The notes under the pieces are model-generated. The model was given only the letters and a program-made list of their open reading frames with translations, searched no databases and was not told where the DNA came from. From NCBI GenBank assembly GCA_041662125.1, contig JBAZTA010000005.1, positions 52,978 through 116,977 of the forward strand: a stretch of DNA of 64,000 nucleotides, in the 5' to 3' direction. The first letter of the stretch is position 1; every line of letters begins with the position of its first letter. The position numbers and the translations under genes are program-made. This DNA comes from Candidatus Omnitrophota bacterium (GTDB taxonomy: Bacteria; Omnitrophota; Gorgyraeia; Gygaellales; Profunditerraquicolaceae). Positions 505 to 59,872 of this stretch are shown piece after piece.

Positions 505-2208
505 ATGGTAAAAATGTTTGCGGTAATAAGAAAGATTTTAGCTTTTACTGTCAAAATCTTCCTTGGGATCTTCCTTTTCTATTTATTCCTCGCCTTAATC
601 GTAATTCCGCTTGGTGCTCCTTGGGCGGCAAAAAGCCAAGGGACTAAATTACTTAAACATCCTGTCCAGGTGCGTTCAGTGTTCTTTAATCCTTTCTTGC
701 TTCGGTTGAGTATCAAGGATTTTGCTATTCTTGATACCGATAAGCAAATAATGGTTGGGTTTGACAAGTTTTGGGCTGATGTTAGTTTTATCCGTTTGTT
801 TAGGAAAGAACTTCGCGTTGAATCATTGGGCCTTGACGGTTTGGTGGTCAATACCGCGCTTTTGGTTGATGGGCAGATCAATCTGCTTGAGTTGGTGCCG
901 GCGCCTTCTGCAGCGCAGGAGCCAGTTGCAGAGAAAAAAGTTCCTATGGGAAAACCGGACGTGGTTTCGGCGTCTGCAACAAAACCTTTGCCATTGGTGA
1001 TTGTTGATTCTATTGCCTTTAAACGGGGCAGAGTAGGTTTTATTGACCGGACTGTAGAGCCTAATTTTAAGACGTCATTAAGTAACATAGATATTCAAGT
1101 CAGTGGGATCTCTACCAGGCCTGATGCTCAAGTAAAAGTTATTTTTCAAGCCTCGCTCGATGAAAAAGGTACCATTGCTACAGAAATGTTGATCATGCCT
1201 TTTGTTCAGCCGTTGAAGGTTGAAATGGCATTTTCCCTGAATAATTATATGTTGCAGGTTTTGACTCCTTATGTTGGAAAATATACCGGCCACGCAGTTA
1301 AAGAAGGTAAGTTAGACTTGAAGATGGATTACTCAATCGCGGACAATCAGCTCAAAGCCGCACATAAGCTCCTGGTGCAGCGTTTTAATTTCGGCACAAA
1401 AGTCCCCAGTAAAGATGCGTTGAATCTGCCCTTTGGATTGGCAGTGGGGCTTTTAGAGGACCCTCAGGGGCGTATCAATATTTCTTTGCCGGTTACCGGA
1501 GATATGAGTGACCCGAAATTTGAATATTTTCATCTTATCGGACAGGTGGTGAGGAACTTTTTCTTAAAAATCGTAACCAAGCCTTTGATGTTTTTAGTTT
1601 CACTTGCGGGCACAGAGTCCGGTACCGAAGAGATCGGCACCGTGCGTTTTATACCTGGTAAAACTGAGCTGTCAGTTGATGATAAACAGCGGTTACAGGC
1701 TTTGGCCTCGGGTTTAAAAGAGCGGCCGAGATTGCTGTTGGAAATTAACGGCACCTATGATCCTCAGGCAGATTGGCAGGCTATACGCCGAGAAACGTTT
1801 CAGAACAAGCTTCTTGCGATGCGTAAGGAGTGGACCCGCTCAGACAGCCGTTTAATGCAGCAACTTTATGTTGAGTTTTTCGGGGTGCGGTCTTATTGGG
1901 ATTTGGAGAAGAAATTTAAGGCTGCGGAAGGTAAGCTTGATGAAGAGGATATTACCGCGGAAATGAAACGCCGGTTAATTGAAGATGCGCCTAAAGATCA
2001 AGCAGCTTTGGATGCTCTGGCTCAGGCTCGCGCACAATTGGCCTATGATTTTTTCATTGCCGAGGGATTTGACAAAACACGGGTGAGTATTGGAACCAGC
2101 CGTCAGGCGCAAATCAGTATGGGGTATGTGCCCATGGAGTTTACCCTTACTGTGTTTGAGGATCGTGAAGATGTGCCTCAAGATAGTGCCGGCCAAGATC
2201 ACCGTTAA
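505..2208 (+). CDS. Membrane-anchored protein of unknown function (DUF748/AsmA-like by resemblance)
   Basis: 567-aa ORF. N-terminal hydrophobic helix (IFLGIFLFYLFLALIVIPLG) followed by a soluble domain. No catalytic motif recognised. Family label is tentative. Confidence 0.5.
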   Translation: MVKMFAVIRKILAFTVKIFLGIFLFYLFLALIVIPLGAPWAAKSQGTKLLKHPVQVRSVFFNPFLLRLSIKDFAILDTDKQIMVGFDKFWADVSFIRLFRKELRVESLGLDGLVVNTALLVDGQINLLELVPAPSAAQEPVAEKKVPMGKPDVVSASATKPLPLVIVDSIAFKRGRVGFIDRTVEPNFKTSLSNIDIQVSGISTRPDAQVKVIFQASLDEKGTIATEMLIMPFVQPLKVEMAFSLNNYMLQVLTPYVGKYTGHAVKEGKLDLKMDYSIADNQLKAAHKLLVQRFNFGTKVPSKDALNLPFGLAVGLLEDPQGRINISLPVTGDMSDPKFEYFHLIGQVVRNFFLKIVTKPLMFLVSLAGTESGTEEIGTVRFIPGKTELSVDDKQRLQALASGLKERPRLLLEINGTYDPQADWQAIRRETFQNKLLAMRKEWTRSDSRLMQQLYVEFFGVRSYWDLEKKFKAAEGKLDEEDITAEMKRRLIEDAPKDQAALDALAQARAQLAYDFFIAEGFDKTRVSIGTSRQAQISMGYVPMEFTLTVFEDREDVPQDSAGQDHR

Positions 2209-2264
2209 AGTTTTCTTCATCGAGCGGTAATCCTGTTACAAAATTACGTGAAATTCTCCCGATA

Positions 2265-3851
2265 TTGTTCATGCAAAGAAATATTCCAGCCAAAATAAAG
2301 ACAACTCTTCAAACAAAGATTACCCTGGTTATATTAGGTATTTTTTTATTTCTTGTGTTCCTTGAGGTTGGGTTGCGCACCGGTGGGAGTATACTAACGT
2401 TTGTGCAGGAATACGGGAACAGGCGGAGTATCAAAGAAAAAGGCGTTTATCGTATTTTGTGTTTGGGCGAATCTACTACTGCAAAGCAATACCCGCATCA
2501 TCTTGAAAAAATCTTAAATCAGCGCAAGGTTGGAGTGCGTTTCAGCGTCATAGATAAAGGCATTCCGGGAGCGGTCACTACAGTTATATTAAACCGGGTA
2601 GAATCTTACCTTGATGAATATCATCCTGATCTGGCGGTTGCGATGATGGGGATCAATGACGCAGGAAGCCATATCCCTTTTGAAGTAGGCACGGCTTCAA
2701 AAACAATGCTTTTCTTTAAGTCCTTGAGAATTTATAAACTGTTAAAGTTACTTTGGTTGCATATTTTGGTTAAAGCTCATGAGACAGGGTTTTATAAACT
2801 AAATGGATATAATCACTCTCCTGAAAAAGAGCAAGCTTATCTTACAGAGATTGACCTAAAAGATTTTACCGCCGATTCAGTTCTAACCCATGATTCCTTG
2901 AAGAAAGCCTTAGCAATAAACCCGCAGGATGATGACGCATACTCTGGATTAGGAGAACTTTGCCGCATTCAAGGGAGATTCCCTCAAGCTGAAGCGTTGT
3001 TCAGGAAAGCTCTTGAGATAAATCACAAAAACTATAAAGCACACGTTGGATTAGGATTAATATATCAAATTAATCGCGAGTTTCCTCAGTCAGAAGAATT
3101 ATTTAAAGAAGCTATCGACATCAAACCTGAAAATTTTAATGCATACGCTGGATTAGGGGCAACTTATCGCGCACAAGAAAAGCTTTATTTGGCTGAAGAG
3201 TTGTTTAAGAAAGCCATCGCCATCATCCCTGAATGTGATAATGCATACGTTGGATTAGGATGGATTTATGCGCTTCAACGTAAACCATCCCAGGCTGAAG
3301 AGTCTTTCAAGAAAGCTTTAGAGATAAATCCTGAAAATATTCATGCGTTCGTTAAGTTGGGAGAATTGTATTACTATCAAGGGCAATTGGCACAAGCTAT
3401 AGAGATATTCCATAAAGCCGCGGAAATAAAACCTAAAAACGAACGTGTACTAGGATCAATTGCATTATTATACGAAAAAACAGGTAAACAAGTACTGGCA
3501 AAAGAATATGCGGAAAAATTAAATAAATTAAGGCCGAAATATTATAAATCGGTTACCATTAACAACTATCGCAAGCTTAAAGAGATATTAGATAAAAGGA
3601 GGATAAGATTGGTTTGCGTGCAGTATCCTATGCGTAGCATCAGCCCATTAAAGAAAATATTTGAAGAAGAAAACGATGTTGTTTTTGTAGATAATGAGGC
3701 TGTATTTAAAGAAATGGGGAGAAAGGCTGAACTGAAGGAAATATTCTCGGATTTGTTTGCCGGCGATTTTGGCCATTGCACAAAAAAAGGTAACCAGCTT
3801 TTAAGCGAAAATATAGCAAATGTGATTTTAAAAGAAATATTTAACAAATAG
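2265..3851 (+). CDS. SGNH/GDSL-type hydrolase with an inserted TPR-repeat domain and N-terminal TM helix
   Basis: SGNH block I LCLGESTT (GDS-like), block III MMGINDAG (GxND), block V C-terminal GDFGHCT (DxxH). Between blocks III and V there are ~6 TPR-like repeats (AYSGLGELCRIQGRFPQAEALFRKALEINHKN..., A-x-x-GLG pattern). Paralog of 57223-58902. Confidence 0.7.
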   Translation: MFMQRNIPAKIKTTLQTKITLVILGIFLFLVFLEVGLRTGGSILTFVQEYGNRRSIKEKGVYRILCLGESTTAKQYPHHLEKILNQRKVGVRFSVIDKGIPGAVTTVILNRVESYLDEYHPDLAVAMMGINDAGSHIPFEVGTASKTMLFFKSLRIYKLLKLLWLHILVKAHETGFYKLNGYNHSPEKEQAYLTEIDLKDFTADSVLTHDSLKKALAINPQDDDAYSGLGELCRIQGRFPQAEALFRKALEINHKNYKAHVGLGLIYQINREFPQSEELFKEAIDIKPENFNAYAGLGATYRAQEKLYLAEELFKKAIAIIPECDNAYVGLGWIYALQRKPSQAEESFKKALEINPENIHAFVKLGELYYYQGQLAQAIEIFHKAAEIKPKNERVLGSIALLYEKTGKQVLAKEYAEKLNKLRPKYYKSVTINNYRKLKEILDKRRIRLVCVQYPMRSISPLKKIFEEENDVVFVDNEAVFKEMGRKAELKEIFSDLFAGDFGHCTKKGNQLLSENIANVILKEIFNK

Positions 3852-3857
3852 TAATTA

Positions 3858-5156
3858 TTGTTTTTTAAAAACCAGCTTATAATATTTCCTATGCATAAAC
3901 TTTTATACTTGCCAATAGTCAGAAAACAGCAGTGGCGCAGTGCTGACTATTTGCAGCGGTTGCAATCCACTTTATTGCAGGGGACTATTAAAACAGCATA
4001 CGATACAATTCCATTCTATAAAAAAAGGCTTGATACGGTTAGTTTTGATATTGCCAGGATCGGAGAAAAAGATTATTATAAAAAGGTCCCGGTTTTAAGC
4101 AAACAGGAAGTTAAAGAAGCTTATAGTGAAGGTTCTATTTTTAATAGTAAATATCTAAGGAAAAGTATATCCCGTACAACTTCCGGTTCATCCGGTTTCC
4201 CGCTAACAATTTATTATGATAAGAAAAGTTATGCTTATTCTGAAGCAATTTATGCCAGGGCGCTCTTGGAGCAAGGGGTGAAACTTACTGATAGGATAGC
4301 GTATTTCTGGTATGAACCGTTTAAAGAGCGCGGCTTTTGGGAGTATCTGGGATTATTTAAGAAAAGCGAAATTCTTTATACTCAATCGATAGATAAACAA
4401 TTGGAACAATTACAGAGGCTTAATCCTGATGTAATACACTGTTTTCCGAGCGCATTGTATGTTTTGTGCCGGCATATTAACAGGTTGGGTATTAAATTGA
4501 ACATCAGGCTCGTTATTACTCACGGTGAATTGCTTTTGGATAATTTCAGGAAAGAAATCGAAAATACATTTGGGGTAAAGATATTGGATCAATACGGTTC
4601 GAACGAATTTAACCGCATGGCCTGGCAGTGTAAGGAATACGGCAGTTATCATATAGATGCGGATAACATCTTTGTCGAATTCTTGGATAGAAATGATAAG
4701 GAAGTAAGCTGTGGAGAAAAAGGAAGGTTAGTTGTCACGCATCTTAATAACCGCATGATGCCGCTTATCAGATATGAAATGGGTGATTACGCGGTTAAAA
4801 AAGAAGGCTTGTGCCCCTGCGGGAGGATGTTGCCACTTTTAGAAAAGCTTGAAGGAAGAAAAGATGATTTTATTAAGCTTGCTAACGGGCAGATTTTATC
4901 TCCCCGGGCTGTTGGTGGGCTTCTTGAGCGTGTAAAATCATTAGAGAGGTATCATTTTATTCAATATCAGATAAATGGTTTTAGGATGGATATCATTCCG
5001 AACGAGTTATATAATGAAAAAGAGAAATCTTATACGCGTGGAATATTACTGGATATATTGGGAAAAGATGCGTTACTTGAAATTCGTGTTGTAAATGAGT
5101 TATCAAAATCAAGAACCGGAAAAATGCGGGCAATTGAATCGCGTTTGATGGGTTGA
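3858..5156 (+). CDS. Adenylate-forming enzyme, CapK/PaaK (phenylacetate-CoA ligase/F390 synthetase) family-like
   Basis: AMP-binding signature TSGSSGFPLTIYYD (T-S-G-S/T-S/T-G-x-P). Size of 432 aa is typical for CapK-like proteins of capsule loci. An alternative start at 3891 is possible. Confidence 0.65.
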   Translation: MFFKNQLIIFPMHKLLYLPIVRKQQWRSADYLQRLQSTLLQGTIKTAYDTIPFYKKRLDTVSFDIARIGEKDYYKKVPVLSKQEVKEAYSEGSIFNSKYLRKSISRTTSGSSGFPLTIYYDKKSYAYSEAIYARALLEQGVKLTDRIAYFWYEPFKERGFWEYLGLFKKSEILYTQSIDKQLEQLQRLNPDVIHCFPSALYVLCRHINRLGIKLNIRLVITHGELLLDNFRKEIENTFGVKILDQYGSNEFNRMAWQCKEYGSYHIDADNIFVEFLDRNDKEVSCGEKGRLVVTHLNNRMMPLIRYEMGDYAVKKEGLCPCGRMLPLLEKLEGRKDDFIKLANGQILSPRAVGGLLERVKSLERYHFIQYQINGFRMDIIPNELYNEKEKSYTRGILLDILGKDALLEIRVVNELSKSRTGKMRAIESRLMG

Positions 5157-5171
5157 TGGTTTTCTATAAGA

Positions 5172-6980
5172 TTGCCGCTGATGAAGATTATATTATTATC
5201 CCCACCGATCTTTCCTCCTAAAGAACCATATTTAGCTGTCCCTACGTTAACCGCTTTCTTGTCAAACCACGGGTTTAAAGACGTTATACAACGCGATATT
5301 AATCTGGAAACATATGATATTTTGCTCAGTAGTAAATACCTTTTGCATTGTCATCAGGCGAACAGCGAGGAATTAAGGAAATTGAGATGTAACATTGTTC
5401 CTGGGGAAGATTCCTTAAAGAAGTATAAGCTCTTAAAAACAGCTGTTCGATTCGCGCCTTATATTATTAAAAGGATTGATCGGGCCCGGGAGTATCTCAA
5501 GGCAGGCAATAAGCATAAGCGCGGTAATGTTTTTAATCTCAAGCGGCTACTGAGTTTTGAAATCCTTTCAGCAGGATTTGCCGTTATTAATGCCAGGTAT
5601 TTTCCGGCTTATATTTCATTCTCAAGTTTTAAAAACAGCTATTCTCTTGATTCTTCCCAAGGTATCTTAAAAGCTGTCGCGGACATTAAAGAAAACTTGT
5701 TTATTGAGCTGTTTCAGAAGTATATATGCCCGGGAATTATTAAGGAAAATCCTCAGCTTCTGGGCATTTCAATCAATGATAAGGAACAGGTAGTCCCGGG
5801 CCTTACCTTAGCCATGTTGCTGCATGAAGCAGGTTTGTATGTGGTTATCGGAGGGCATATATTTACTAAATACTTGCCTGTTATCCGGGAATACTTTCAG
5901 TTGTGTGATAGTTTTGTTATAGGGGGAGGTGAAAATGCGTTGGCAGCACTGTTAATAAAAATAAAAGGCAGCCAGGATTTCTTAGGTGTGCCTAACCTGG
6001 TATGGTATGATAAGATAAATAAGAAAATGATCATTAATAAAAGAGATGACCATAATACTTGTAATGCGTCTCTCACGCCTTCTTATGAAGGTTTGCCGGC
6101 GAAGTCTTACTTTTCTTTCTTTGATAATTCAATCAGGTTTCCTCTTGTGGTGGGCAAGGGATGTTATTGGAATAAGTGCGCATTTTGCGATATTTCCAGT
6201 GATACGGATTATGCGGCAAGGGATGTCTCTTTAATAATAAGCGATATCAATAAAATTATCGATTGCGATAAAGTAAACAGGTTTTTCTTTGTTATTTGTT
6301 CTTTGGAGCCGGAATTTGTGCGTAATTTGTCTAATGCTATACTTGCTCATGGATTGAAAATTGAGTGGGAAGGGTACGCGCGGTTTGAGAAGGAGTTTAA
6401 CCCTGATTTGTGCGGTTTAATGAAGCGTTCAGGCTGCAGGCGGCTTTTTATGGGGTTTGAGAGCGGTTCGCAAAGACTATTAGATCTGATGAATAAGGGG
6501 GTAGCAGTAAGCTGTATGGAAGATGTAATTTCTAATCTGTATCAGGCTGGTATTGCGGTTAATCTTTTTACGCTCTCAGGATTCCCGGGAGAATCCGATA
6601 ACGATGTTTTGGCTACAATTGAGTTTTTAACAAGAAATCGCAAAAGACTTGATTTAAGAAATTTCTATTTTGACAATGGGCAGTTTAGGTTAAACCGTAA
6701 CTGTAAAGGCCCGGGTTTGCAGCATATCTCGAAAGATGAGTTTGGTAATACGGGGATAGATGCGTTCGATTCAGGGCTTTGGCTCAGTGATAAAATATGT
6801 GGCCTATTGTGCCGCCTGGTTGAGCGTGAGTATTATCATTTTAAGGGCAGCCGCATTTTATGGCAGACTCCCCGCAGCGCGAATATATTGAAAAACGGTA
6901 TCGTTATTGCTGGAAAGCTTTTTCTGCACAGGACAGGTTTTAAGATCGTTCGATACCTTCGCAGTGCGATAGCCAAATAA
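5172..6980 (+). CDS. B12-binding (class B) radical SAM enzyme, noncanonical CX4CX2C cluster motif
   Basis: N-terminal Rossmann-like region typical of B12-binding domains. GKGCYWNKCAFCD tri-cysteine motif (spacing 4/2). GFESGSQRLLDLM motif typical of class B rSAM. Confidence 0.7.
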   Translation: MPLMKIILLSPPIFPPKEPYLAVPTLTAFLSNHGFKDVIQRDINLETYDILLSSKYLLHCHQANSEELRKLRCNIVPGEDSLKKYKLLKTAVRFAPYIIKRIDRAREYLKAGNKHKRGNVFNLKRLLSFEILSAGFAVINARYFPAYISFSSFKNSYSLDSSQGILKAVADIKENLFIELFQKYICPGIIKENPQLLGISINDKEQVVPGLTLAMLLHEAGLYVVIGGHIFTKYLPVIREYFQLCDSFVIGGGENALAALLIKIKGSQDFLGVPNLVWYDKINKKMIINKRDDHNTCNASLTPSYEGLPAKSYFSFFDNSIRFPLVVGKGCYWNKCAFCDISSDTDYAARDVSLIISDINKIIDCDKVNRFFFVICSLEPEFVRNLSNAILAHGLKIEWEGYARFEKEFNPDLCGLMKRSGCRRLFMGFESGSQRLLDLMNKGVAVSCMEDVISNLYQAGIAVNLFTLSGFPGESDNDVLATIEFLTRNRKRLDLRNFYFDNGQFRLNRNCKGPGLQHISKDEFGNTGIDAFDSGLWLSDKICGLLCRLVEREYYHFKGSRILWQTPRSANILKNGIVIAGKLFLHRTGFKIVRYLRSAIAK

Positions 6981-7013
6981 ATATGTTTAAAGAAGCGGTG
7001 AGAAAGGTTTCAT

Positions 7014-8648: not shown

Positions 8649-8650
8649 AT

Positions 8651-9442: not shown

Positions 9443-9467
9443 ATATGGCTTTATTGCGTGAGGGGTT

Positions 9468-11436: not shown

Positions 11437-11479
11437 ACCTGATTTTATGGATTAAGTTTTTTAATAATTCAATGTAATT

Positions 11480-13617: not shown

Positions 13618-13638
13618 AAATCTTACAAGGGACTTTAA

Positions 13639-43021: not shown

Positions 43022-43023
43022 AA

Positions 43024-45470: not shown

Positions 45471-45496
45471 TCACACTATTGTTTTAATAAAAAGGA

Positions 45497-45913
45497 GTGA
45501 CTATGAAAAGAAAAAAGATGCCGACAACACGTGTTTTAGATCTTACCGCGATAGCGGTCCTGGTGGTGGGGCTTGTATTATGCGGCTATGTGCTTTTTTT
45601 TAAGTTTATCGGTGTCAAGTCGGTGCTCATCAGTATTGTAACATTTCTGATGAGCGTTGTTTTAGCCGCGTTGATCCGCATGATCGGGATAATGGGTGAG
45701 TTCCTGTATACGATCACAGAATCTTTGTTTACCCTGAATCAATCGGTTGTATCATTGTCTGATGATGTTTTACGCCAGGAGCTATCGGAAATCTCGGAAA
45801 TAAAGCATGGTATTGAGAAAATAAGTTCAGACACAAAAGATATTACCGTGAGTATTGATGATATTAATGTTTTTTTTCAGAAAATAGAGCGGCATTTAGA
45901 CCTGAAAAGATAA
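45497..45913 (+). CDS. Small membrane protein, hypothetical
   Basis: AAAAGGAG RBS upstream. Two TM helices, then a predicted coiled-coil tail. Confidence 0.5.
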   Translation: MTMKRKKMPTTRVLDLTAIAVLVVGLVLCGYVLFFKFIGVKSVLISIVTFLMSVVLAALIRMIGIMGEFLYTITESLFTLNQSVVSLSDDVLRQELSEISEIKHGIEKISSDTKDITVSIDDINVFFQKIERHLDLKR

Positions 45914-48918: not shown

Positions 48919-48923
48919 ATACG

Positions 48924-50165: not shown

Positions 50166-50171
50166 GAGCGG

Positions 50172-51374: not shown

Positions 51375-51419
51375 CATGAGAAAATTTGTTCCCGTGAATT
51401 AAAAAAACATTCATCAGGG

Positions 51420-52928: not shown

Positions 52929-54039
52929 CGTTGATCGATATTCCTAATAAGAGCCACCAGGCCATCGCTACCTCTGGCAGAAAAAAAGTGAAATCAATAA
53001 GGTTATGTATGAGAAAAACCGAAACGCAAGACAGGACTGCGATAGTGGTACGTTGGTTTTCCCGGCTCAAGCGTATGCTGCCCATCGCTTTTTTGCAGGA
53101 TCCTGCGACCAACCAGATAAAAGCCAGAAGGCCCGTTATTCCCATTTCAGCCCAGATCTGTAAATATGAGTTATGAGCGAATCGTGTTTGGGGAAGGTTA
53201 AAATTGCCTATGCCGATGCCGGTAAAGGGGGCTTTAAAAATAATAGTGAAAGTTTCTTTCCAATAGTTCATTCTCGCTAAAGTCGAGAATATAGGTTGGA
53301 TATGTACTTTTGCCGTAGTCGTGCGCATTATGGCAACGATCCCCAGGATCAGGAGCAATGAGCCAAGTAGTGCCATAACTATTTTACGGTCTTTGATCTG
53401 TAATACTATGTAAAGGCATAACCCTAAGAACGTGCTGGCGATGGCGCCAAAAGAGCGGGTGAGCAGCAGCGTTAAGACCAAAGGAATCATATACCAGCTT
53501 TTTTTGGGGTTGATGAGGGTAAGCGGGATAAACATGCCCACATAACCGCCGAGCATGTTCGGGCTGACAAAAGGGAAATATGCCCTGTTTTGGTTAAGGG
53601 TTTCAATGATGTAAGGGGCTTTGATCCCGTGCATTCTTACGTAATGCAAGAGATTGAGGTATCCAAAAAAGTATTGATACATTGCAGCCAGGCTTACGAT
53701 GAGCGCAAAGATGACCATTGCATGAATGCACAGGGATTTCTGACGGCTGGTAAAAGTTGCGGCAAGAAAGAGAATGAGGATGCCGCTTGTATACTTGGAG
53801 AGTTCTGCAATACTGTTTAATTTTACAAGCGAGAAGGCAACCGAAATTATCAGTGACAGGCAAAACAAAAGTATTGGCAAGGCAATTGGCTTCAGAGACT
53901 GAGAGGCCTTGATCTTGAGGATACAATACAGCATTGCGAAGCAAAGAAAAAATGTAGAATATAGATAATTGAGCTGCGGGTATGCTAAAGAAGAGATAAA
54001 AGGCCGGAAAAAGATTAACAATAGAAAGAAGATAAACAT
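52897..54039 (-). CDS. O-antigen ligase/polymerase family membrane protein (Wzy_C domain)
   Basis: ~10 TM helices. HNSYLQIWAEMGITGLLAF (H-N-x-Y-L...E-x-G-x-x-G, Wzy_C signature). Confidence 0.65.
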   Translation of the reverse strand: MFIFFLLLIFFRPFISSLAYPQLNYLYSTFFLCFAMLYCILKIKASQSLKPIALPILLFCLSLIISVAFSLVKLNSIAELSKYTSGILILFLAATFTSRQKSLCIHAMVIFALIVSLAAMYQYFFGYLNLLHYVRMHGIKAPYIIETLNQNRAYFPFVSPNMLGGYVGMFIPLTLINPKKSWYMIPLVLTLLLTRSFGAIASTFLGLCLYIVLQIKDRKIVMALLGSLLLILGIVAIMRTTTAKVHIQPIFSTLARMNYWKETFTIIFKAPFTGIGIGNFNLPQTRFAHNSYLQIWAEMGITGLLAFIWLVAGSCKKAMGSIRLSRENQRTTIAVLSCVSVFLIHNLIDFTFFLPEVAMAWWLLLGISINDEDSHSHTDI

Positions 54040-54102
54040 TGTGATATAATTTTAGTCAATATTAACCTAAAAGTCAAATAGATTCATTTTGCATGGTGCC
54101 CT

Positions 54103-55092
54103 ATGGACGCTCGGATATGTAAAAAATGCGTACTACCGGAATTTAAGCCTGACATATGGCTTAATCAGGACGGGGTCTGTAATATCTGCGTCGATTTCCA
54201 GGAACATAAAGCTTCAGGAAAATCCCTGCCGCCGCTTGAATCGGAATTTACTAAACTATTGCTTAAGTTCAGGGGGAAGAATAAATATGATTGCCTGGTG
54301 ATGTGTAGCGGCGGAAAAGACAGCACCATAAGCCTGTATTACATGAAGAAAAAGTACCATCTGAATGTCCTGGCATTTACTTTTGATCATGGTTTTGAGA
54401 ATGACGAGGCTTTGGAGAATATACGAAACGCCGTTGATATCCTTGGAGTCGAATGGTTATATTTTAAGTCTGATTTTATGAAAGACGTTTTCCGCCGTAT
54501 GATAGAAACAAATACCAGCGCGCCGTTATGCCATGTCTGCGCGATCTGGTATCTGCAGCTCACTTATGATGTTGCCGCGCGCTACCGTATCCCGCTGGTT
54601 GTCGCCGGCTGGACAAAAGGGCAATCAACGGAATATGGAGAATTGGGAACGGAATACACCGCGATGTCTAAAGCCACACAGGTTTTTATCCGGGAGTATT
54701 TAAGGGTATTGCCACAGTATAAAGATTTCCCCCTCAGCATTAAAGAAGTCCTGCAGATATCCCGGAGAAAGTTTCGTATAACTTCTGTTTCTCCTCACTG
54801 GTTCCTGCGCTATGAGCCTGAAGAAATCATGCAAACATTGCAAAAAGAGCTGCGCTGGAAGGCGCCTCTCATGAGTTATCCTAAGGATTCGACCAATTGT
54901 ATCATGAACTTTGCCAGTGTCTATCAGACTATGCGGCATTTCGGGTATACTCATTATCATGTTGAAATGAGCAAACTTATAAGAAAGAACGAAATGACCA
55001 GGCAGGAAGCTTTAAAGCTTTTAGCGATCGATTTTGATAAAGCCTATTGTGATTCACTGCTGAGTAAGATCGGATGCTGTATTGCACAATAA
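54103..55092 (+). CDS. N-acetyl-sugar amidotransferase-like PP-loop ATPase (WbuX/LPS biosynthesis family-like)
   Basis: N-terminal zinc-ribbon cysteines (CKKCVLPE...GVCNIC) followed by the PP-loop LVMCSGGKDST. Confidence 0.6.
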   Translation: MDARICKKCVLPEFKPDIWLNQDGVCNICVDFQEHKASGKSLPPLESEFTKLLLKFRGKNKYDCLVMCSGGKDSTISLYYMKKKYHLNVLAFTFDHGFENDEALENIRNAVDILGVEWLYFKSDFMKDVFRRMIETNTSAPLCHVCAIWYLQLTYDVAARYRIPLVVAGWTKGQSTEYGELGTEYTAMSKATQVFIREYLRVLPQYKDFPLSIKEVLQISRRKFRITSVSPHWFLRYEPEEIMQTLQKELRWKAPLMSYPKDSTNCIMNFASVYQTMRHFGYTHYHVEMSKLIRKNEMTRQEALKLLAIDFDKAYCDSLLSKIGCCIAQ

Positions 55093-55114
55093 CCGGGGGC
55101 CTTGGCTATTACCT

Positions 55115-55339
55115 ATGGAGTTTAAGAAGAAGCTAAAGGAGTTTGTCGGCATAATCCAAAAGGTAATCATAACGTTTCTTTTGTTTTTTTTGTACCTTTT
55201 TGCTTTTGGGGCCATGTTTTTATTCATGAAAGCCTTTAGAATCAACTTAGGTTGCTCCGGGCGATCAGGCGCCGCTTCTTTTTGGGAAAAAGCCAAAGGC
55301 TATTGCAGCGGCATGGATGAAAGTATGAGGGGGTCTTAG
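55115..55339 (+). CDS. Small hydrophobic protein upstream of the carbamoyltransferase (hypothetical)
   Basis: MEFKKKLKEFVGIIQKVIITFLLFFLYLFAFGAMFLFMKAF; one TM helix. The ORF-track start at 55082 is TTG; ATG at 55115 preferred. Confidence 0.35.
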   Translation: MEFKKKLKEFVGIIQKVIITFLLFFLYLFAFGAMFLFMKAFRINLGCSGRSGAASFWEKAKGYCSGMDESMRGS

Positions 55340-55344
55340 GAAAC

Positions 55345-55506
55345 ATGAAGAAAATAGCCTATATTTTTAAGGAAATGTTTTATATGATCCGCCTGCATAA
55401 ATTATTTTTTATCGCACCACTCCTGTTTGTCCTGGCGTTATTAGCTATACTCGTTTATTATGTCGGGCCAACTGTCATTATGTCGTTCATTTACGCGGGT
55501 ATCTGA
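55345..55506 (+). CDS. Small membrane protein (53 aa, below ORF-track cutoff), hypothetical
   Basis: ATG at 55345, translation MKKIAYIFKEMFYMIRLHKLFFIAPLLFVLALLAILVYYVGPTVIMSFIYAGI, GAGGGGG upstream. Small TM proteins of this kind commonly accompany NodU/CmcH-type carbamoyltransferases (recollection, not searched). Confidence 0.3.
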   Translation: MKKIAYIFKEMFYMIRLHKLFFIAPLLFVLALLAILVYYVGPTVIMSFIYAGI

Positions 55507-55540
55507 GTTTTGACTTGAGAATCAATCATACGGGAATCCT

Positions 55541-57226
55541 ATGAAGGTCCTTGGTGTATCTTGTTTTTACCACGATTCAGCGGCATGCTTGATATCAGAC
55601 GGAAAGATCGTCGCGGCCGCTCAGGAAGAACGCTTCAACCGGCGTAAAAACTCGCCTGATTTTCCTATCAACGCGATCAATTATTGCCTTCAGCAGGACA
55701 GCGCGTCCGTTTATGATATTGATTACATCGGATTTTATGAAAAGCCTTTCTTGAAATTTTCCCGCGTTATTGTAAGCCATCTGCAATCCTTTCCTTTTTC
55801 TTTGCGCAATTTTATCGATACTGTCCCTCATTGGCTGGCTGACCGCCTTATTATGCCCCTTGTTTTCAAACGTGAATTAGGGTTTGAGGGGAAGGTTTTG
55901 TTTATTCCTCATCATATGTCTCATGCGGCAAGCGCTTTTTTTTCCTCTGGATTTAATGAGGCTGCTATCTTGACTGTAGATGGCGTGGGAGAATGGGCGT
56001 CGGTAACCTGCGGGGTGGGCAAAGGCAATCAAATCACGATCAATAAAGAATTGCGTTTTCCTCATTCCCTGGGACTTTTATATACGGCAGTGACGACGTT
56101 CCTTGGTTTTCAAGCGTTGGAAGGAGAAGGGACCGTTATGGGATTAGCGGCCTTGGGAAAACCGGCGTATGTGGATAAATTTAAATCCATCATTTCTCTT
56201 AAACAAGACGGTAGTTTTCATCTGGATATGCGTTATTTCGGGTTCTTTAACGAAGGCCGCATGATGTACACTCAAAGGTTTGTGCGGGCATTCGGCAGTC
56301 CCCGCTTGCCGGGTGGAAAGTTAGAAGAGCGGCATTGTGATATTGCCTGTAGCCTGCAGGCGGTTACTGAAGAGGCGCTTGTCAATCTAGCCTGCGGCCT
56401 TTACCATGATACCGGAGTTGACAGCTTATGCCTGGCAGGAGGGGTATGTTTGAATTGTGTGGCAAACCAGAAGATCAAAGAAAAGACGCCTTTTAAAAGG
56501 ATTTTTATTCAACCTGCTGCTGGCGATAGCGGCGGGGCGTTAGGCGCGGCTGCCTATATTTATTTTAACCTTCTTAACAACCAGCCGGACAACCTGATGG
56601 TAGACGCTTACCTTGGGCCTGAATTCAGCGCCGCGCAGATAAAAAGGGTTTTAGTCAATAATGCAGTTGATTTTAAGGAATTTGAGGAAGCTTCGTTATG
56701 TAAATATATCGCGGCAAAGATTTATGAGAGTAAGATCATCGGCTGGTTCCAGGGCCGGATGGAGTTTGGCCCCCGGGCGTTGGGTAACCGTTCCATCCTG
56801 GCTAATCCTTGTAATCCTGACATGAAAGAATTGCTGAATAAGAAAGTCAAGGATCGAGAGCCATTCCGGCCGTACGCGCCGCTGGTGCTGGAAGAAAAAG
56901 CCGCGGATTATTTCCAAATGAGCGGACCGTCTTCGTTTATGTTATTGGCGCCACAGGTGAGAAAAGATAAGGTTGCGGTTATCCCGGCGGTTACGCATTA
57001 CGATGGTTCCGCCCGGGTCCAGACAGTGAATAAAAATGGTAACCCGAAATTGTGGCAGTTGGTTAAAGAATTTGAAAATCTGACCGGGGTGCCGGTTATC
57101 ATCAATACATCGTTTAATCTGCGGGGGCAACCGATTGTCTGCAGTCCTGAAGATGCGCTCGGAAGTTTTCAAAGTAGCGCGATGGATATCTTGGTCTTAG
57201 GAAATTTCGTCATAGAAAAGTCATGA
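55541..57226 (+). CDS. Carbamoyltransferase, NodU/CmcH/TobZ family (second copy)
   Basis: MKVLGVSCFYHDSAACLISDGKIVAAAQEERFNRRKN. Near-canonical family N-terminus. 561 aa. Confidence 0.85.
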   Translation: MKVLGVSCFYHDSAACLISDGKIVAAAQEERFNRRKNSPDFPINAINYCLQQDSASVYDIDYIGFYEKPFLKFSRVIVSHLQSFPFSLRNFIDTVPHWLADRLIMPLVFKRELGFEGKVLFIPHHMSHAASAFFSSGFNEAAILTVDGVGEWASVTCGVGKGNQITINKELRFPHSLGLLYTAVTTFLGFQALEGEGTVMGLAALGKPAYVDKFKSIISLKQDGSFHLDMRYFGFFNEGRMMYTQRFVRAFGSPRLPGGKLEERHCDIACSLQAVTEEALVNLACGLYHDTGVDSLCLAGGVCLNCVANQKIKEKTPFKRIFIQPAAGDSGGALGAAAYIYFNLLNNQPDNLMVDAYLGPEFSAAQIKRVLVNNAVDFKEFEEASLCKYIAAKIYESKIIGWFQGRMEFGPRALGNRSILANPCNPDMKELLNKKVKDREPFRPYAPLVLEEKAADYFQMSGPSSFMLLAPQVRKDKVAVIPAVTHYDGSARVQTVNKNGNPKLWQLVKEFENLTGVPVIINTSFNLRGQPIVCSPEDALGSFQSSAMDILVLGNFVIEKS

Positions 57227-58902
57227 AAGCATTCAGACAGCGCTTGATCGTCATCTTGATTGGCATAGCGGTAACTCTTTTTGTGTTAGAGGCCGGATTG
57301 CGCATACTCGGATCGTTCTACGCAAAGCGCGCTTCTCGAAAATCAAAAGCTGATAGTTGCCAATATACGGTTTTATGCGTGGGGGATTCTTTTGTCTTCG
57401 GATTTGGGGTGCCTTTTGAGCAGTCTTTTCCTGTTCAACTGCAGGTTTTATTGGATAATAAAAATCCGGAGAGGAGAATTAAGGTTGTCAACCGGGGGGT
57501 CGGCGCGCAGACAACGACACTGCTTTTGCAAGGTTTGCCGTACGAGATCAGTACGATTGATCCCGACCTGGTCATTGTATTAAGCGGGGGCGCGAATCAA
57601 TGGAATTCCACGGGTTATTATACTTACCTTAAAGGAAACACAGTTAAGGCAATGCTTCAGGATTCTTTCAGTAGAAGCGCAATAGTTAAGTTGGTTAAGC
57701 TTTTATCTTTTAATATAAGAAATAAAATGAAGGAAATTACATGTCAAAGGGATAATTTTGATATGCAATTCGCTGGTGGTGCGTTTGGAAAAGAAAGGGA
57801 GCCGATGCGTGATACCTTGTATAATCTTAATCTTGGAATGCGCTATATTGATGAAAGGGATTATGCCAGGGCCAGGGATTTGTTCCAAAGGATGATCGCA
57901 AGGGATCCTCAGGATACGGCGGGATATTTTGGCATGGGGACTGTTCTTACCATCCAGCAGTTTTATACGCAAGCAACAGGATTTTTCCAGCAAGCAATCG
58001 AGTTGGATCCTGCTGATGCCAGGAGTTATGGAGGGCTGGCTTTGTGTTACAAAGAAAATCGGGATTATCAAAACGCCTTGGCATGGTTTAAGAAAGCTCT
58101 CAGATTATCTCCTGAGGACAGCCGGATCTATTGGAATGTAGGCAGTATTTATCTGGAGCAGCGTGAATTTGCCGAAGCGGAAAAATGGTTTTCTGAGGCG
58201 ATTACCCGTAATCCGCGTGATAGCCGCGCTTATTATTATATGGGGAAATTTTATAAAGATCAGGGGAAATATGTTGAGGCATTGCAATGGTTTGATAAAG
58301 GTTTGAGAGTGGATCCTCAGGATTGGTCGAACTATTACGGGTTTGCCTGCGTTTATTCTGAGAGGAATGAGTTCGGGCAGGCAGTACCCTGGATAAAACA
58401 AGGGATCAAAGCCGCTCCTGCTTCTTTAGAGAACCTTAATTATAGGTTAATCGTCTATGTCTTCCGGCAGGTTATGCCATATGACGAAGTGGTTACATTT
58501 ATCCGCGGAATCATGCAAAATGCGGGGGTGCCGCGCGATGTGTGGGAGTTCTATAATGCAAGAGATATCGGTCAAAAAGAGGGTGCATGGCTTGAACATG
58601 ATTTAGATAGTATTGCTCGAATATGTAAAGAGAAAAATATTCCGGTCATGTTTCAGAATTATCCCTTTGGTTTTGATTTCGCCTCTTTAGTCCTTCAAAA
58701 GGTCGCCGAAAAGAATTCGATTCCTTTTGTGGATAACCGCCGGGTTTTTGATGCGTTGTGGGAAAAGGGCGAAAAACGGGGGGATTATTCTGTCCCTGAC
58801 GGCCATTGTAATGGAAAAGGCTATGGGGTTATCGCGAATAATATTTATGAGAAGTTAATAGAGCTTGGATGGTTTGATCCCGGCAAAAAAATAGGGAACT
58901 AA
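57223..58902 (+). CDS. SGNH/GDSL-type hydrolase with inserted TPR-repeat domain (paralog of 2265-3851)
   Basis: Block I VLCVGDSFVFGFG, block II NRGVGAQTT, block III LSGGANQWNS, block V C-terminal VPDGHCNG (DxxH). TPR repeats between. Start overlaps the carbamoyltransferase stop (ATGA). Confidence 0.7.
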   Translation: MKAFRQRLIVILIGIAVTLFVLEAGLRILGSFYAKRASRKSKADSCQYTVLCVGDSFVFGFGVPFEQSFPVQLQVLLDNKNPERRIKVVNRGVGAQTTTLLLQGLPYEISTIDPDLVIVLSGGANQWNSTGYYTYLKGNTVKAMLQDSFSRSAIVKLVKLLSFNIRNKMKEITCQRDNFDMQFAGGAFGKEREPMRDTLYNLNLGMRYIDERDYARARDLFQRMIARDPQDTAGYFGMGTVLTIQQFYTQATGFFQQAIELDPADARSYGGLALCYKENRDYQNALAWFKKALRLSPEDSRIYWNVGSIYLEQREFAEAEKWFSEAITRNPRDSRAYYYMGKFYKDQGKYVEALQWFDKGLRVDPQDWSNYYGFACVYSERNEFGQAVPWIKQGIKAAPASLENLNYRLIVYVFRQVMPYDEVVTFIRGIMQNAGVPRDVWEFYNARDIGQKEGAWLEHDLDSIARICKEKNIPVMFQNYPFGFDFASLVLQKVAEKNSIPFVDNRRVFDALWEKGEKRGDYSVPDGHCNGKGYGVIANNIYEKLIELGWFDPGKKIGN

Positions 58903-58906
58903 ACGT

Positions 58907-59872
58907 ATGTCCGCAGTTCTGGTAAGTATTATCATTGTCACCGCAGGCAAAGAAGGCCATATTCACAAGTGCCTTTCTTCGATCGTAAAACAATCCTTTC
59001 GTAATACAGAGACAATAGTTATCGATAATTCTCTCAATAGTGCTTTAGGCTATTTTATTGCAAGAGAGTTTCCCTTCTCTCGAGTATTGAAAAGTGAAAA
59101 AAACCTGTTTTATTGCGCGGCTTTAAACAAGGGGATAGCCGAAAGCAGGGGAGAGTTCGTTCTCTGTCTCAATGATGATGTGGTTTTAGATGAGCGTTTT
59201 GTTGAGGAAGCGCTGCGGGGTTTTAGCGTGGGCCCTGGTATCGGGATGGTCAGCGGTAAGATCTTGCGTCCAGATAAGAAAACGATAGATAGCGCGGGGT
59301 TGTTTTTGAGCCTCTGGAGGACACCGCTTGAGCGCGGGTATGGGAGAATCGATAGGGGCCAGTTTGAGCGCCAGGGTTATGTTTTTGGGGTCAACGGCGC
59401 AGTAGCGTTTTATAGGAAAGAGATGCTCAATTCCCTGCTTATAAAAGGATTGCCCGGAGGGCAGGAATATTTTGACACAGACCTTGGATTTTTCTATGAA
59501 GACCTGGATATTGCCTGGAGGGCGCAAAAGAGCGGATGGAAGGGGTATTATATACCTGCTGCGATCGCCTATCATGTGCGGGGCGCTACTGCTCGCCAGA
59601 GCAAAGGCATTAATAAAAGGTTTGCCCGGTTTTATCTTAACGATGAATTAAACTTTAATTTAATAAGGAACAGGTATCTGGTGATCATTAAGAATGATAA
59701 GCTCCTTACTTTTTTAGCTTGCCTGTTCTTTATGATTCTTTTTGATCTTGTGACGTTTGCGTATTTAATCATCTTCCGGCCAACTGTATTAAAATTCTTC
59801 TTCAATTCTGCCATACCTTTTCGATCAGCCCTGCGTAAAAGAAAACTCATCAAGCAACTTAAACGCATATAA
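58907..59872 (+). CDS. Family 2 glycosyltransferase
   Basis: VSIIIVTAGKEGHIHKCLSSIVKQSFRNTETIVIDNS, NDD motif, DLDIAWRAQKSGWKGYYIP region typical of the rhamnosyltransferase-like GT2 subgroup. Confidence 0.75.
   Translation: MSAVLVSIIIVTAGKEGHIHKCLSSIVKQSFRNTETIVIDNSLNSALGYFIAREFPFSRVLKSEKNLFYCAALNKGIAESRGEFVLCLNDDVVLDERFVEEALRGFSVGPGIGMVSGKILRPDKKTIDSAGLFLSLWRTPLERGYGRIDRGQFERQGYVFGVNGAVAFYRKEMLNSLLIKGLPGGQEYFDTDLGFFYEDLDIAWRAQKSGWKGYYIPAAIAYHVRGATARQSKGINKRFARFYLNDELNFNLIRNRYLVIIKNDKLLTFLACLFFMILFDLVTFAYLIIFRPTVLKFFFNSAIPFRSALRKRKLIKQLKRI

Follow-up and report, generated by a model that had tools for sequence, protein, structure and literature searches.

Radical-SAM enzymes among the envelope-glycan genes of a Candidatus Omnitrophota bacterium: evidence for two independently inherited units

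Why should a stretch of bacterial DNA with about 47 genes carry as many as ten radical-SAM (rSAM) domains, each of them surrounded by glycan genes, and do these genes serve a single pathway? In the window analyzed here, 64,000 nucleotides of a Candidatus Omnitrophota MAG, ten such domains had been counted by a sequence-only reading, and the count holds: ten proteins score above the gathering cut-off of the Pfam Radical_SAM family PF04055 (29.5 bits), the CxxxCxxC motif is intact in 10/10, and none of the ten genes is interrupted. If the rSAM background is set at 2% of genes, a figure that we assumed, the probability of finding at least 10 in 47 is 2.7e-8. Our best explanation, which as a whole we hold with slightly better than even confidence, is that the window contains two independently inherited envelope-glycan units: a decoration cassette (unit A, rSAM1-4) and a core export locus (unit B) for an ABC-transporter-dependent, galactofuranose-type polysaccharide whose sugars would be edited by rSAM enzymes before export.

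None of the ten rSAM proteins reaches an NCBIfam cut-off, in line with the earlier suggestion of undescribed chemistry; their chemistry fits no curated family, and the assignments given here are by analogy. The genes all lie on the plus strand. The four enzymes previously called class B, namely rSAM1 (5172-6980; 602 aa; C331/C336/C339; PF04055 48.7 bits), rSAM4 (22377-23771, alternative start 22302; 54.4 bits), rSAM7 (40440-41864; 62.7 bits), and rSAM10 (45913-47271; 60.9 bits), all have B12-binding rSAM families as their best NCBIfam matches, such as the PhpK family for rSAM1 (98 bits, cut-off 600) and HpnJ for rSAM4 (75 bits). The Pfam B12-binding domain is matched below its cut-off of 32.1 bits in rSAM7 (29.8 bits) and rSAM10 (26.9 bits) and is absent from rSAM1 and rSAM4; the four are class-B-like, with putative cobalamin binding, and rSAM7 is methyltransferase-like (TIGR03975, 151 bits, cut-off 282). 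The other six had been read as SPASM-like. PF13186 (SPASM, cut-off 21.5 bits) was indeed found in rSAM3 (21283-22380, alternative start 21214; PF04055 69.8 bits, PF13186 21.6 bits), in rSAM5, a fusion to a GT2 glycosyltransferase (37350-39272; PF04055 66.6 bits at residues 336-495, PF13186 25.0 bits), in rSAM6 (39288-40421; 87.5 and 31.0 bits), and in rSAM9 (43024-44187; 98.5 and 37.5 bits), but the Pfam search gave no SPASM match in rSAM2 (10381-11436; C35/C39/C42; PF04055 45.2 bits) or rSAM8 (41861-43021; 59.1 bits), which carry C-terminal Cys clusters and have SPASM/twitch families as best matches. At a hydropathy threshold of 1.6, transmembrane segments were predicted in none of the rSAM proteins except for a marginal stretch in rSAM1 and a C-terminal hydrophobic stretch in rSAM4.

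SPASM enzymes are typical peptide maturases, the top fold and sequence neighbors include the maturases SuiB and SkfB (rSAM9 matches SkfB and BlsE in the PDB), and rSAM7 is matched best by a RiPP C-methyltransferase family. One could thus imagine a RiPP or glycopeptide cluster, with a peptide that the SPASM enzymes cross-link before its glycosylation and export, a reading that we consider extremely improbable. As the sequence-only reading had reported for leader peptides, neither operon contains a free small ORF, and the absence of a precursor peptide agrees with its placement of the enzymes in glycan-assembly operons and not in RiPP clusters. Among the core SPASM enzymes the first residue of the rSAM motif lies at 16-42, and over all SPASM enzymes at 16-65 (65 being rSAM3 from the 21283 start). 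The sequence before it is too short to accommodate an RRE domain, and none was found; PqqD, a peptidase, and a leader-cleaving transporter are missing from the window as well. This peptide-free layout is repeated in dozens of loci, and the accompanying WecA, mutase, Wzm, and Wzt are glycan-specific.

These glycan genes belong to the core export locus (30342-48106), which is encoded on the plus strand. It begins with a GT4 glycosyltransferase identified by Pfam (30342-31580) and a WecA/MraY-family polyprenyl-phosphate HexNAc-1-P transferase, the initiating enzyme (31570-32556; PF00953 116 bits; TIGR02380 100 bits, under the cut-off). The flavoenzyme that follows, formerly described as Glf-like, is a UDP-galactopyranose mutase of the eukaryote type (32549-33853; PDB 4dsg, E=1.6e-42, residues 4-416). 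The Wzm ABC-2 permease (33850-34629; PF01061) precedes a Wzt ATPase of 906 aa (34630-37350), in which the NBD is joined to three galactose-mutarotase-like beta-supersandwich repeats of about 220 aa; at the sequence level they do not match the carbohydrate-binding domain known from Wzt. Then come the fusion and a run of rSAM genes, followed by rSAM8, rSAM9, the glycosyltransferase GT2_b (44184-45470), whose position after rSAM9 is conserved, and a 138-aa membrane protein (45497-45913) with a hydrophobic N-terminal part, one strong predicted transmembrane segment, and a polar tail. For the latter no family match was found; its position is conserved, with homologues in loci L007, L013, L016, L020, L023, and L033. 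The HpnJ/AprD4-like rSAM10 and GT2_c (47231-48106) close the locus. GT2_c is hypervariable, with 51-52% identity in relatives whose neighboring genes reach 70-89%.

At least 52 species-representative genomes share this gene order, with identities of 39-79%. They come from a pattern-based survey that reached 10 kb to either side, and "lineage-wide" is accordingly meant as a lower-bound sample. Among the 36 loci whose upstream sequence spanned 7 kb or more, Wzm was present in 34, Wzt in 32, the mutase in 27, the WecA-like gene in 24, and GT4 in 23; among the 30 with sufficient downstream sequence, rSAM9 was present in 26 and its conserved partner rSAM8 in 25, the latter retaining 48-62% identity in distant loci. 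The variable run, to which rSAM6 belongs, comprises 1-8 paralogues in other species, and a locus holds 4-10 rSAM ORFs (median 7); this species-variable central run is likely the source of structural diversity. The core is found in dozens of Omnitrophota species and always includes the GT2-rSAM fusion, its signature gene. More than 120 full-length clusters of the fusion share 45-79% identity, and its DxD (D90, D92), C340/C344/C347, and SPASM cysteines are invariant, a sign that both domains are under selection. Its AF2 model has a pLDDT of 85.5, and its nearest solved rSAM relative is BlsE (E=8.6e-14). No description of such rSAM-edited glycan chemistry was found in the searchable literature.

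Instead of the lipid-linked chain, nucleotide sugars could be the substrate of editing. The solved neighbors include the sugar-acting BlsE, AprD4, and, by fold match, DesII; the substrates of the nearest of them are small sugars bound to a nucleoside or an aminoglycoside, and the rSAM proteins are predicted to be soluble. The enzymes would then make unusual nucleotide-sugar donors, as DesII, GenK, and BlsE do for antibiotics, for polymerization by ordinary glycosyltransferases, leaving the lipid-linked chain unedited. We find this rather unlikely: the conserved GT2-rSAM fusion and the GT2-rSAM-rSAM triple fusions that were also found suggest that editing is coupled to sugar transfer, the core lacks the nucleotidyltransferase, dehydratase, and aminotransferase typical of NDP-sugar pathways, and tandem paralogues, as many as eight in one locus, fit residue-specific editing better.

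The target might instead be a lipid: the polyprenyl carrier itself, a lipid of the hopanoid-like or membrane-spanning kind, or a glycolipid whose head group is converted to a cyclitol in the manner of HpnJ. HpnJ is the best family match of rSAM10, although at 255 bits the score is less than half of the TIGR03471 cut-off (577.6), and the same protein matches AprD4 in the PDB (6fd2, E=1.1e-24); rSAM9 weakly matches GDGT-MAS/Tes, and Mss/Hbs lipid rSAM genes occur in some Omnitrophota. However, the published lipid genes are confined to 12-15 Omnitrophota genomes, where they cluster with mss/tes and not with WecA/Wzm/Wzt, and the window has no squalene-hopene cyclase, hpnH/G, mss, or tes genes, making a lipid target very unlikely.

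We then asked how the core relates to the rest of the window. Unit A is a glycan-decoration cassette of 23 kb (3845-26903). Besides rSAM1-4 it encodes a CapK/PaaK-like ligase (3858-5156), a GT-C of the PMT_2 type (7014-8648), a GT2 (9468-10415), an epimerase (11480-12445), an ATP-grasp protein (12445-13617), an ELFV dehydrogenase (13639-14922), a carbamoyltransferase (14967-16673), an exported beta-propeller of 1180 aa (16703-20245), a CapK-like protein (23805-25127), and three proteins without assignment (8651-9442, 20145-21269, and a 525-aa ORF on the minus strand, 25147-26724). Its left flank is a backbone gene on the plus strand for a GDSL/SGNH hydrolase and TPR protein with an N-terminal anchor (2265-3851, Pfam). 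In the close relative L157 the homologue of this gene, at 57% identity, immediately precedes cspA; positions 3204-3844 match L157 40-680 at 69.6% of the DNA. The cassette is an indel relative to L157, with 23,059 bp in the window and only 223 bp in L157, and from 27379 to 47272 the two are colinear at 79.5% DNA identity. The sequence-only reading had joined both halves into one elaborate pathway; that they form a single, functionally inseparable pathway now seems quite unlikely. It is true that the halves adjoin on one strand, that they have paralogous gene types in common (carbamoyltransferases at 40% and GDSL/TPR proteins at 25% identity), and that a cassette without its own flippase may feed the neighboring export system. 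Yet L157 has the full core without the cassette, an independent phylogenetic distribution of the kind that the sequence-only reading had itself named as refuting its view; GC content is 39.0% in the cassette against 43.6-44.1% in the spacer, core, and tail segments; and in the same database rSAM1 has 34 homologues (E<=1e-10), only one of them close, against more than 700 matches for the fusion. A plus-strand housekeeping spacer (27068-30244) also separates the halves, with cspA (27068-27268), a strong intrinsic terminator with a 13-bp stem (27286-27314), a groES-like gene (27380-27733), a conserved 102-aa membrane ORF (27765-28073), and the H+-pyrophosphatase gene hppA (28145-30244).

Unit A is a rare, low-GC, horizontally variable cassette. 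The only contig with a close homologue (P0122, 80%) keeps the cassette gene order and adds a Wzx flippase; because this Wzx is missing here, the cassette may be partly defunct in this genome. In four metagenome contigs with an H+-pyrophosphatase of 84-93% identity, hppA has the sigma/CHAT genes (60077-63623 in the window) immediately downstream, indicating that the intervening 30-kb block is positionally mobile as well.

That block ends in the variable accessory tail of unit B (48103-59872) with cysD (48103-48918), cysN (48924-50165), an AlkP-family phosphodiesterase broken by an in-frame TAA (50172-52235), a DPM1/AglJ-like GT2 (52170-52928) and a Wzy_C/WaaL-like protein (52897-54039), both on the minus strand, a WbuX-like amidotransferase (54103-55092; 171 bits, cut-off 203), DUF5989 (55345-55506), a carbamoyltransferase (55541-57226), a GDSL/TPR protein (57223-58902), and a GT2 (58907-59872). 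L016 has neither the cysDN genes nor the phosphodiesterase; linkage of Wzy_C to the locus is seen in L016, L019, L032, L034, and L057. Domain searches over the window recovered nearly all glycan functions named before, that is, GT4, the WecA-like PNPT, Wzm/Wzt, Wzy_C, GT-C, the epimerase, both carbamoyltransferases, ATP-grasp, the ELFV dehydrogenase, cysDN, the WbuX-like protein, and, through weak matches, the two PaaK/CapK-like adenylating enzymes. Seven GT2 plus a DPM1-like protein proved too many: six PF00535 proteins were counted, the DPM1-like one included (9468, 37350, 44184, 47231, 52170 on the minus strand, and 58907).

In the favored two-unit explanation, gene content, intactness, conservation, the indel, and the protein folds are shown by the data, and we infer the following substrate, order of steps, and chemistry. 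Polyprenyl phosphate would be primed by the WecA-like enzyme and the chain extended by GT4 and three GT2 domains, with UDP-galactofuranose, or a related furanose, supplied by the mutase. While the chain is lipid-linked at the cytoplasmic face, soluble rSAM enzymes would edit sugar C-H positions: by analogy, four SPASM-type paralogues, one covalently fused to GT2, may perform oxidation, epimerization, or decarboxylation, and two class-B-like enzymes may perform C-methylation, dehydration, or ring contraction. The product would leave via Wzm/Wzt, the three galactose-mutarotase-like domains of Wzt being the likely glycan-recognition module, and the Wzy_C/WaaL-type ligase and secreted GDSL/TPR enzymes would complete the polymer outside the cytoplasm. 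From unit A would come a sugar branch decorated with amino acids or carbamoyl groups; the unit also contributes four more rSAM enzymes.

In conclusion, a locus with so conserved a fusion points to an undescribed chemical editing of the cell-surface glycan.

The Pfam scan covered all 48 gene-like ORFs of at least 100 aa and revealed a dense gene map, on the plus strand nearly throughout. Ten of the encoded proteins match the radical-SAM (rSAM) family PF04055 with 45-98 bits against a gathering score of 29.5, and in all ten the CxxxCxxC motif is intact and the reading frame unbroken, so that the count of ten rSAM domains made in the sequence-only reading stood. On an assumed background rSAM frequency of 2%, 10 rSAM genes among 47 correspond to a P value of about 3e-8. 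Domain searches agreed with the other annotations of that reading, with two refinements, one for an enzyme that it called Glf-like and one for the GT2 proteins, which it had tallied as seven plus a DPM1-like protein and which come to six PF00535 proteins in total.

Taking an N-terminal B12-binding Rossmann domain (PF02310) ahead of the rSAM core as the mark of class B, we found that the best NCBIfam alignments of rSAM1 (5172), rSAM4 (22377), rSAM7 (40440) and rSAM10 (45913) were with B12-binding rSAM families and spanned the N-terminal region. PF02310 itself scored 29.8 bits in rSAM7 and 26.9 bits in rSAM10 against a cut-off of 32.1, and the Pfam scan found no match to it in rSAM1 or rSAM4. 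SPASM/twitch families gave the best alignments for rSAM2 (10381), rSAM3 (21283), the C-terminal half of a GT2 fusion protein (rSAM5, 37350-39272), rSAM6 (39288), rSAM8 (41861) and rSAM9 (43024). The PF13186 (SPASM) cut-off of 21.5 was reached by rSAM3 (21.6), the fusion (25.0), rSAM6 (31.0) and rSAM9 (37.5), while C-terminal Cys clusters are the only SPASM sign in rSAM2 and rSAM8. None of the ten proteins reached a curated NCBIfam cut-off (HpnJ, AhbD/NirJ, PqqE, anSME, RiPP maturases and others). The closest was rSAM10, with 255 bits against 577.6 for HpnJ in an alignment covering nearly the full model (E=1.3e-75), and all others fell further below theirs. The nearest solved relative of rSAM10 is the B12-domain enzyme AprD4 (6fd2, E=1.1e-24), an aminoglycoside diol dehydratase that is reported to work without cobalamin. 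Within the second half of the locus (the core, 30342-48106), the four SPASM paralogues share 24-28% identity and lie closer together than to rSAM2 or rSAM3. The rSAM proteins are predicted to be essentially soluble: a hydrophobic stretch at the hydropathy threshold appears only in rSAM1 (marginal) and rSAM4 (C-terminal), and in no core rSAM enzyme.

Several SPASM and class-B rSAM genes encoded together recall the multi-rSAM RiPP pathways (proteusins/polytheonamides, sactipeptides, ranthipeptides), in which, as here, the rSAM set presumably edits many positions on one polymer. A peptide product was considered. Genes in 505-25127 and 30342-52235 overlap or sit at most 56 bp apart. When all ORFs of 20-100 aa were scanned, none inside either operon was free of the called genes, which confirms the earlier failure to find leader-like peptides beside the SPASM enzymes. 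Free small ORFs are confined to a few long intergenic regions (26.7-28.1 kb and 55.1-55.5 kb), two of them being cspA (27068-27268) and a DUF5989 membrane peptide (55345-55506). The cluster motif of the SPASM enzymes starts at residue 16-65 (16-42 in the core), leaving no space for the N-terminal peptide-recognition domain (RRE) of RiPP maturases, and Pfam detected no RRE, PqqD-like or leader peptidase/transporter domain in the window. We rejected a RiPP cluster, since every defining feature fails: precursor peptide, RRE/PqqD-like element, and leader peptidase or transporter. Unlike the multi-rSAM RiPP pathways, which have a precursor, an RRE and a protease, this locus carries polymer machinery of the glycan type, and it may be wrongly assigned in BGC mining where rSAM/SPASM genes are taken as the sign of a RiPP cluster.

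PF00953, PF01061, PF00005 and GT2/GT4 matches lie in one operon (30342-52235, intergenic gaps all at most 45 bp), as in ABC-transporter-dependent polysaccharide loci. The co-oriented hallmark genes of the core comprise a WecA/MraY-family initiating transferase, GT4/GT2 glycosyltransferases, a furanose-supplying mutase and Wzm. The mutase, the "Glf-like" flavoenzyme of the sequence-only reading, is a clear UDP-galactopyranose mutase (PDB 4dsg, E=1.6e-42, residues 4-416), and its score of 48.6 bits against the bacterial-type TIGR00031, far under the cut-off of 303.75, places it in a eukaryote-like subtype. The nucleotide-binding domain (NBD) of Wzt is 40% identical to Aquifex aeolicus WzmWzt (PDB 7k2t). 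Residues 251-906 gave no Pfam or PDB sequence match, and thus no O9a-type carbohydrate-binding domain was detected; only the fold search was informative, and it resolved this extension into three galactose-mutarotase-like supersandwiches. A Wzy_C/WaaL-type protein follows at 52897-54039 and is locus-linked in five other species. ABC-transporter-dependent O-polysaccharide and galactan pathways are known from Klebsiella D-galactan I and from mycobacterial galactan (WecA/Glf/GlfT/Wzm-Wzt). The locus shares with them the polyprenyl-P HexNAc-1-P transferase, UDP-galactopyranose mutase, GT2/GT4, Wzm, the Wzt NBD and a linked Wzy_C/WaaL-type protein. It differs in having six rSAM domains inside a conserved core, one of them fused to a GT2, and in the three galactose-mutarotase-like domains of Wzt, where known ABC-dependent systems have a single jelly-roll carbohydrate-binding domain; a WbdD-type chain terminator was not found. 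The threefold mutarotase-like extension would represent a new substrate-recognition architecture in O-antigen-type ABC transporters.

The GT2-rSAM-SPASM fusion (37350-39272) is 100% identical to NCBI MFA6217640.1, a protein from a Candidatus Omnitrophota MAG. Its full-length relatives number more than 120, with identities of 45-79%, and the named ones all come from Omnitrophota, which belongs to the PVC group. Across 17 aligned relatives the GT-A DxD (D90, D92), the rSAM cysteines C340/C344/C347 and the SPASM cysteines are invariant, and the predicted structure separates the two halves by a disordered linker (residues 312-325). The nearest solved relative of the rSAM domain is BlsE (7vob, E=8.6e-14), a cytosylglucuronate decarboxylase, and fold neighbors include DesII (8hzv) as well as the peptide maturases SuiB and SkfB. 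The GT2 half resembles GT-A enzymes that decorate or polymerize polymers (TarP, TarS, chondroitin polymerase, hyaluronan synthase); the fold search of the fusion returned generic GT-A and SPASM neighbors and no mechanistic detail. Some lineages add a second rSAM domain, giving a GT2-rSAM-rSAM fusion (P0018, 963 aa). A profile search of representatives yielded about 5-8 full-length clusters at 50% identity, below which the list, which is without taxonomy, is dominated by multi-GT2 and multi-rSAM giants. Such a handful of representatives fits one orthologous group inherited within the phylum. Public proteins of 1000-1250 aa (P0195, P0198, P0202 and similar) carry 3-4 tandem copies of the rSAM-SPASM half and may be fused versions of a tandem rSAM run.

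The conservation of the core was surveyed in one genome per GTDB species with two peptide patterns and 10-kb flanks on each side, so that the frequencies are lower bounds. The survey yielded 75 loci, 52 with a full-length fusion and nearly all titled Omnitrophota, and gene order was read by assigning each ORF to the best-matching window protein. The recurrent order upstream is GT4, WecA, mutase, Wzm, long Wzt and fusion; a run of SPASM-type and B12-type rSAM paralogues follows, then rSAM8, rSAM9, a GT2, a small membrane protein, the HpnJ-like rSAM and a second GT2. Among the 36 loci with at least 7 kb upstream, Wzm is present in 34, Wzt in 32, the mutase in 27, WecA in 24 and GT4 in 23, and the 30 loci with at least 9.5 kb downstream hold rSAM8 in 25 cases and rSAM9 in 26. 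The latter loci contain 4-10 rSAM ORFs (median 7). The fusion-to-rSAM8 run varies from one to about eight genes. Several loci bear submitters' titles that name Planctomycetales, Paceibacterota or DPANN archaea. Five fusion loci (L002, L039, L047, L051, L054) come from MAGs titled Paceibacterota, Nanoarchaeota, Woesearchaeota or Methanosarcinales, which could reflect mis-binning of small cells or real transfer. In one of the five, L047, Wzt is short (399 aa) and lacks the extension, and the transporter arm is inverted.

The first half of the locus (the cassette, 3845-26903, with rSAM1-4) has a different distribution. In a collection of 5.8 billion proteins, rSAM1 has 34 homologues at E<=1e-10, only one of them close (P0122, 80%), against more than 700 matches for the fusion. 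A close-relative contig of 119,832 bp (L157; HPPase, the H+-pyrophosphatase, 86%, GroES 86%, GT4 73% identity) aligns in three colinear DNA blocks: window 3204-3844 with 40-680 (69.6% identity), 26904-27320 with 904-1320 (92.6%) and 27379-47272 with 2698-22665 (79.5%). Consequently, 23,059 bp of the window (3845-26903) correspond to 223 bp in L157. The indel takes in CapK_a through CapK_b, rSAM1-4 and an ORF on the minus strand, and is bounded by the backbone genes GDSL/TPR_a and cspA. GC content is 39.0% in the cassette versus 43.6-44.1% in the spacer, core and tail segments. The sequence-only reading had joined both halves into a single bipartite supercluster. Whole-locus comparison with relatives spoke otherwise, as L157 has the core without the cassette and homologues number 34 versus more than 700; we rejected the single supercluster on this independent phylogenetic distribution, and the cassette is rare and independently inherited.

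Between the two units lie cspA, an intrinsic terminator, groES, a small conserved membrane ORF and the H+-pyrophosphatase gene hppA. The 66-aa cold-shock gene cspA (27068-27268), under the 100-aa ORF cut-off, is followed 3' by a strong terminator (27286-27314; 13-bp stem, 8 GC pairs), and promoter-like sites precede hppA and GT4. In the groES-hppA gap, a 102-aa hydrophobic ORF (27765-28073) to which no family was assigned is kept in L157 (3087-3395) and is probably a real small membrane protein. A further rSAM indel lies between cspA and groES: L157 carries an extra 431-aa B12-binding rSAM gene there (1350-2645), against 58 bp in the window (27321-27378). In four metagenome contigs (L077, L078, L080, L083; HPPase 84-93%), the genes directly after hppA are homologous to those at 60077-63623 in the window (sigma factor, unknown protein, CHAT/TPR protein), indicating that the 30-kb block of core and tail (30342-59872) is itself positionally mobile; no groES or cspA match was found upstream of hppA in these contigs. 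A 13-nt palindrome, AAGACCSGGTCTT (AAGACC(S)GGTCTT), forms two triplets with 33-37-nt spacing, one (26793-26877) where the 23-kb cassette ends on the right and the other (59876-59958) at the right end of the 30-kb block, against a chance expectation of about 0.8 matches per window. None of the 158 fetched loci has an exact copy, and the corresponding site of L157 (819-880) holds a triple repeat of a different kind. The ORF at the cassette's right edge (25147-26724, minus strand, 525 aa) drew no hit from Pfam, NCBIfam, PHROGs or the PDB sequences. A mobile-element origin of the cassette was considered and found without support, this ORF being unmatched and no long flanking direct or inverted repeats being found. 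Junction alignment with relatives showed no scar at the cassette ends, no tRNA genes were found in the window as candidate integration sites, and Rfam at gathering thresholds returned no riboswitch or other RNA match there.

The cassette encodes two PaaK/CapK-like adenylating enzymes, an ATP-grasp ligase, a Glu/Leu/Phe/Val-type dehydrogenase, a carbamoyltransferase, an epimerase, a GT2, a GT-C, an exported 1180-aa beta-propeller and the four rSAM enzymes. This content suggests a decorated sugar branch with an amide-linked amino acid and carbamoyl groups, which is the least certain part of our interpretation. The P0122 contig keeps the order GDSL/TPR, CapK-like, rSAM1, GT-C, unknown, GT2, rSAM2, epimerase, ATP-grasp, dehydrogenase, carbamoyltransferase, and its rSAM2-epimerase interval, 43 bp long in the window (11437-11479), contains a 482-aa Polysacc_synt (Wzx) flippase. 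The branch would be delivered through a Wzx/GT-C route in that relative; since the flippase is missing in the window, the cassette here may rely on some other system, or it may be in decay.

The tail is variable too, as the relative L016 is without cysDN and the phosphodiesterase, and GT2_c (47231-48106), the last core gene, is 51-52% identical in relatives whose neighboring genes reach 70-89%. An AlkP/phosphodiesterase-family gene at 50172-52235, a 687-codon frame with a single in-frame TAA (51372-51374), is either a pseudogene or an assembly error and is the sole damaged gene in the region. The DUF5989 membrane peptide, of 53 aa (27.5 bits, cut-off 27), lies directly 5' of the second carbamoyltransferase. 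At the other end of the window, outside the glycan units, are the C-terminal ATPase part of a histidine kinase (1-480, judged by translation alone) and, next to it, a DUF748/AsmA-like gene (505-2208).

From the export hallmarks, the soluble rSAM proteins, their sugar-acting nearest relatives, the likeness of the GT2 half and the fusion linker, we infer that sugar residues would be edited by radical chemistry at the cytoplasmic face, coupled to glycosyl transfer and before export. The variable rSAM run would set a species-specific structure, and the polymer would then be attached by the Wzy_C/WaaL-type protein. By analogy only, the chemistry could be methylation, oxidation/epimerization, decarboxylation, deoxygenation or ring contraction. 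Editing at the level of the nucleotide sugar is the main alternative, possible but made less likely by the conserved glycosyltransferase fusions. A lipid substrate is also suggested, solely by the sub-threshold HpnJ and Tes similarity; however, supporting lipid genes are absent, and the published lipid rSAM genes of Omnitrophota are other genes and rare. Hopanoid side-chain tailoring by HpnI (GT2), HpnJ (B12-like rSAM) and HpnK likewise places a GT2 beside a B12-like rSAM, but here rSAM10 stays below the HpnJ cut-off, no hopanoid genes lie nearby and the context is WecA/Wzm/Wzt.

Editing of a glycan has remote parallels. BlsE, AprD4 and DesII, relatives of the fusion and rSAM10, perform radical chemistry on carbohydrate C-H bonds, although the likeness is distant, and BtrN and GenK are further sugar-modifying rSAM enzymes of antibiotic pathways. 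Enzymes of the BlsE/AprD4/DesII type are stand-alone and act on small nucleoside or aminoglycoside substrates, whereas those of the window belong to an operon for polymer export, in which they occur as several paralogues and as glycosyltransferase fusions. To our knowledge, rSAM chemistry on polysaccharides is almost unexplored, and the examples we know of are small-molecule sugars. The nearest precedent that we found is an isolated rSAM gene in the Campylobacter capsule region: in the Campylobacter jejuni HS:19 capsule locus, an rSAM gene adjoins glycosyltransferases and cysDN (PMC8743553). In capsule loci of this type the rSAM genes number one or two, have no known role and belong to a region that varies between strains, in contrast to the conserved battery of 4-10 rSAMs found here across many species of a phylum. 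Neither this locus nor any GT2-rSAM fusion of a polysaccharide pathway turned up in full-text literature searches. The pathway type is already known; what is new is the conserved battery of rSAM enzymes, together with the fusion and the architecture of Wzt.

In conclusion, there is a realistic chance, judged from sequences and structure models, that the locus hides new glycan chemistry. A conserved GT2-rSAM fusion with 4-10 rSAMs in a WecA/Wzm/Wzt locus would open a new class of glycan modification, from which new enzymes for glyco-engineering would follow. Tentatively, and with rather less than even confidence, we propose that Omnitrophota carry a lineage-defining envelope polysaccharide chemically rewritten by an rSAM battery physically coupled to glycosyltransferases; the rewriting could comprise C-methylation, epimerization, deoxygenation, decarboxylation or carbocycle formation. 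If true, glycans would have their own equivalent of the polytheonamide-type systems for editing peptides, in ultra-small, possibly host-dependent cells, with surface diversity arising from an expandable run of rSAM paralogues rather than from glycosyltransferase swapping. For the cell envelope of this uncultured phylum, the locus provides a molecular marker that is concrete and testable. Surface structures probably underlie the biology of these bacteria, including their small size and a lifestyle suspected to be predatory or epibiotic.
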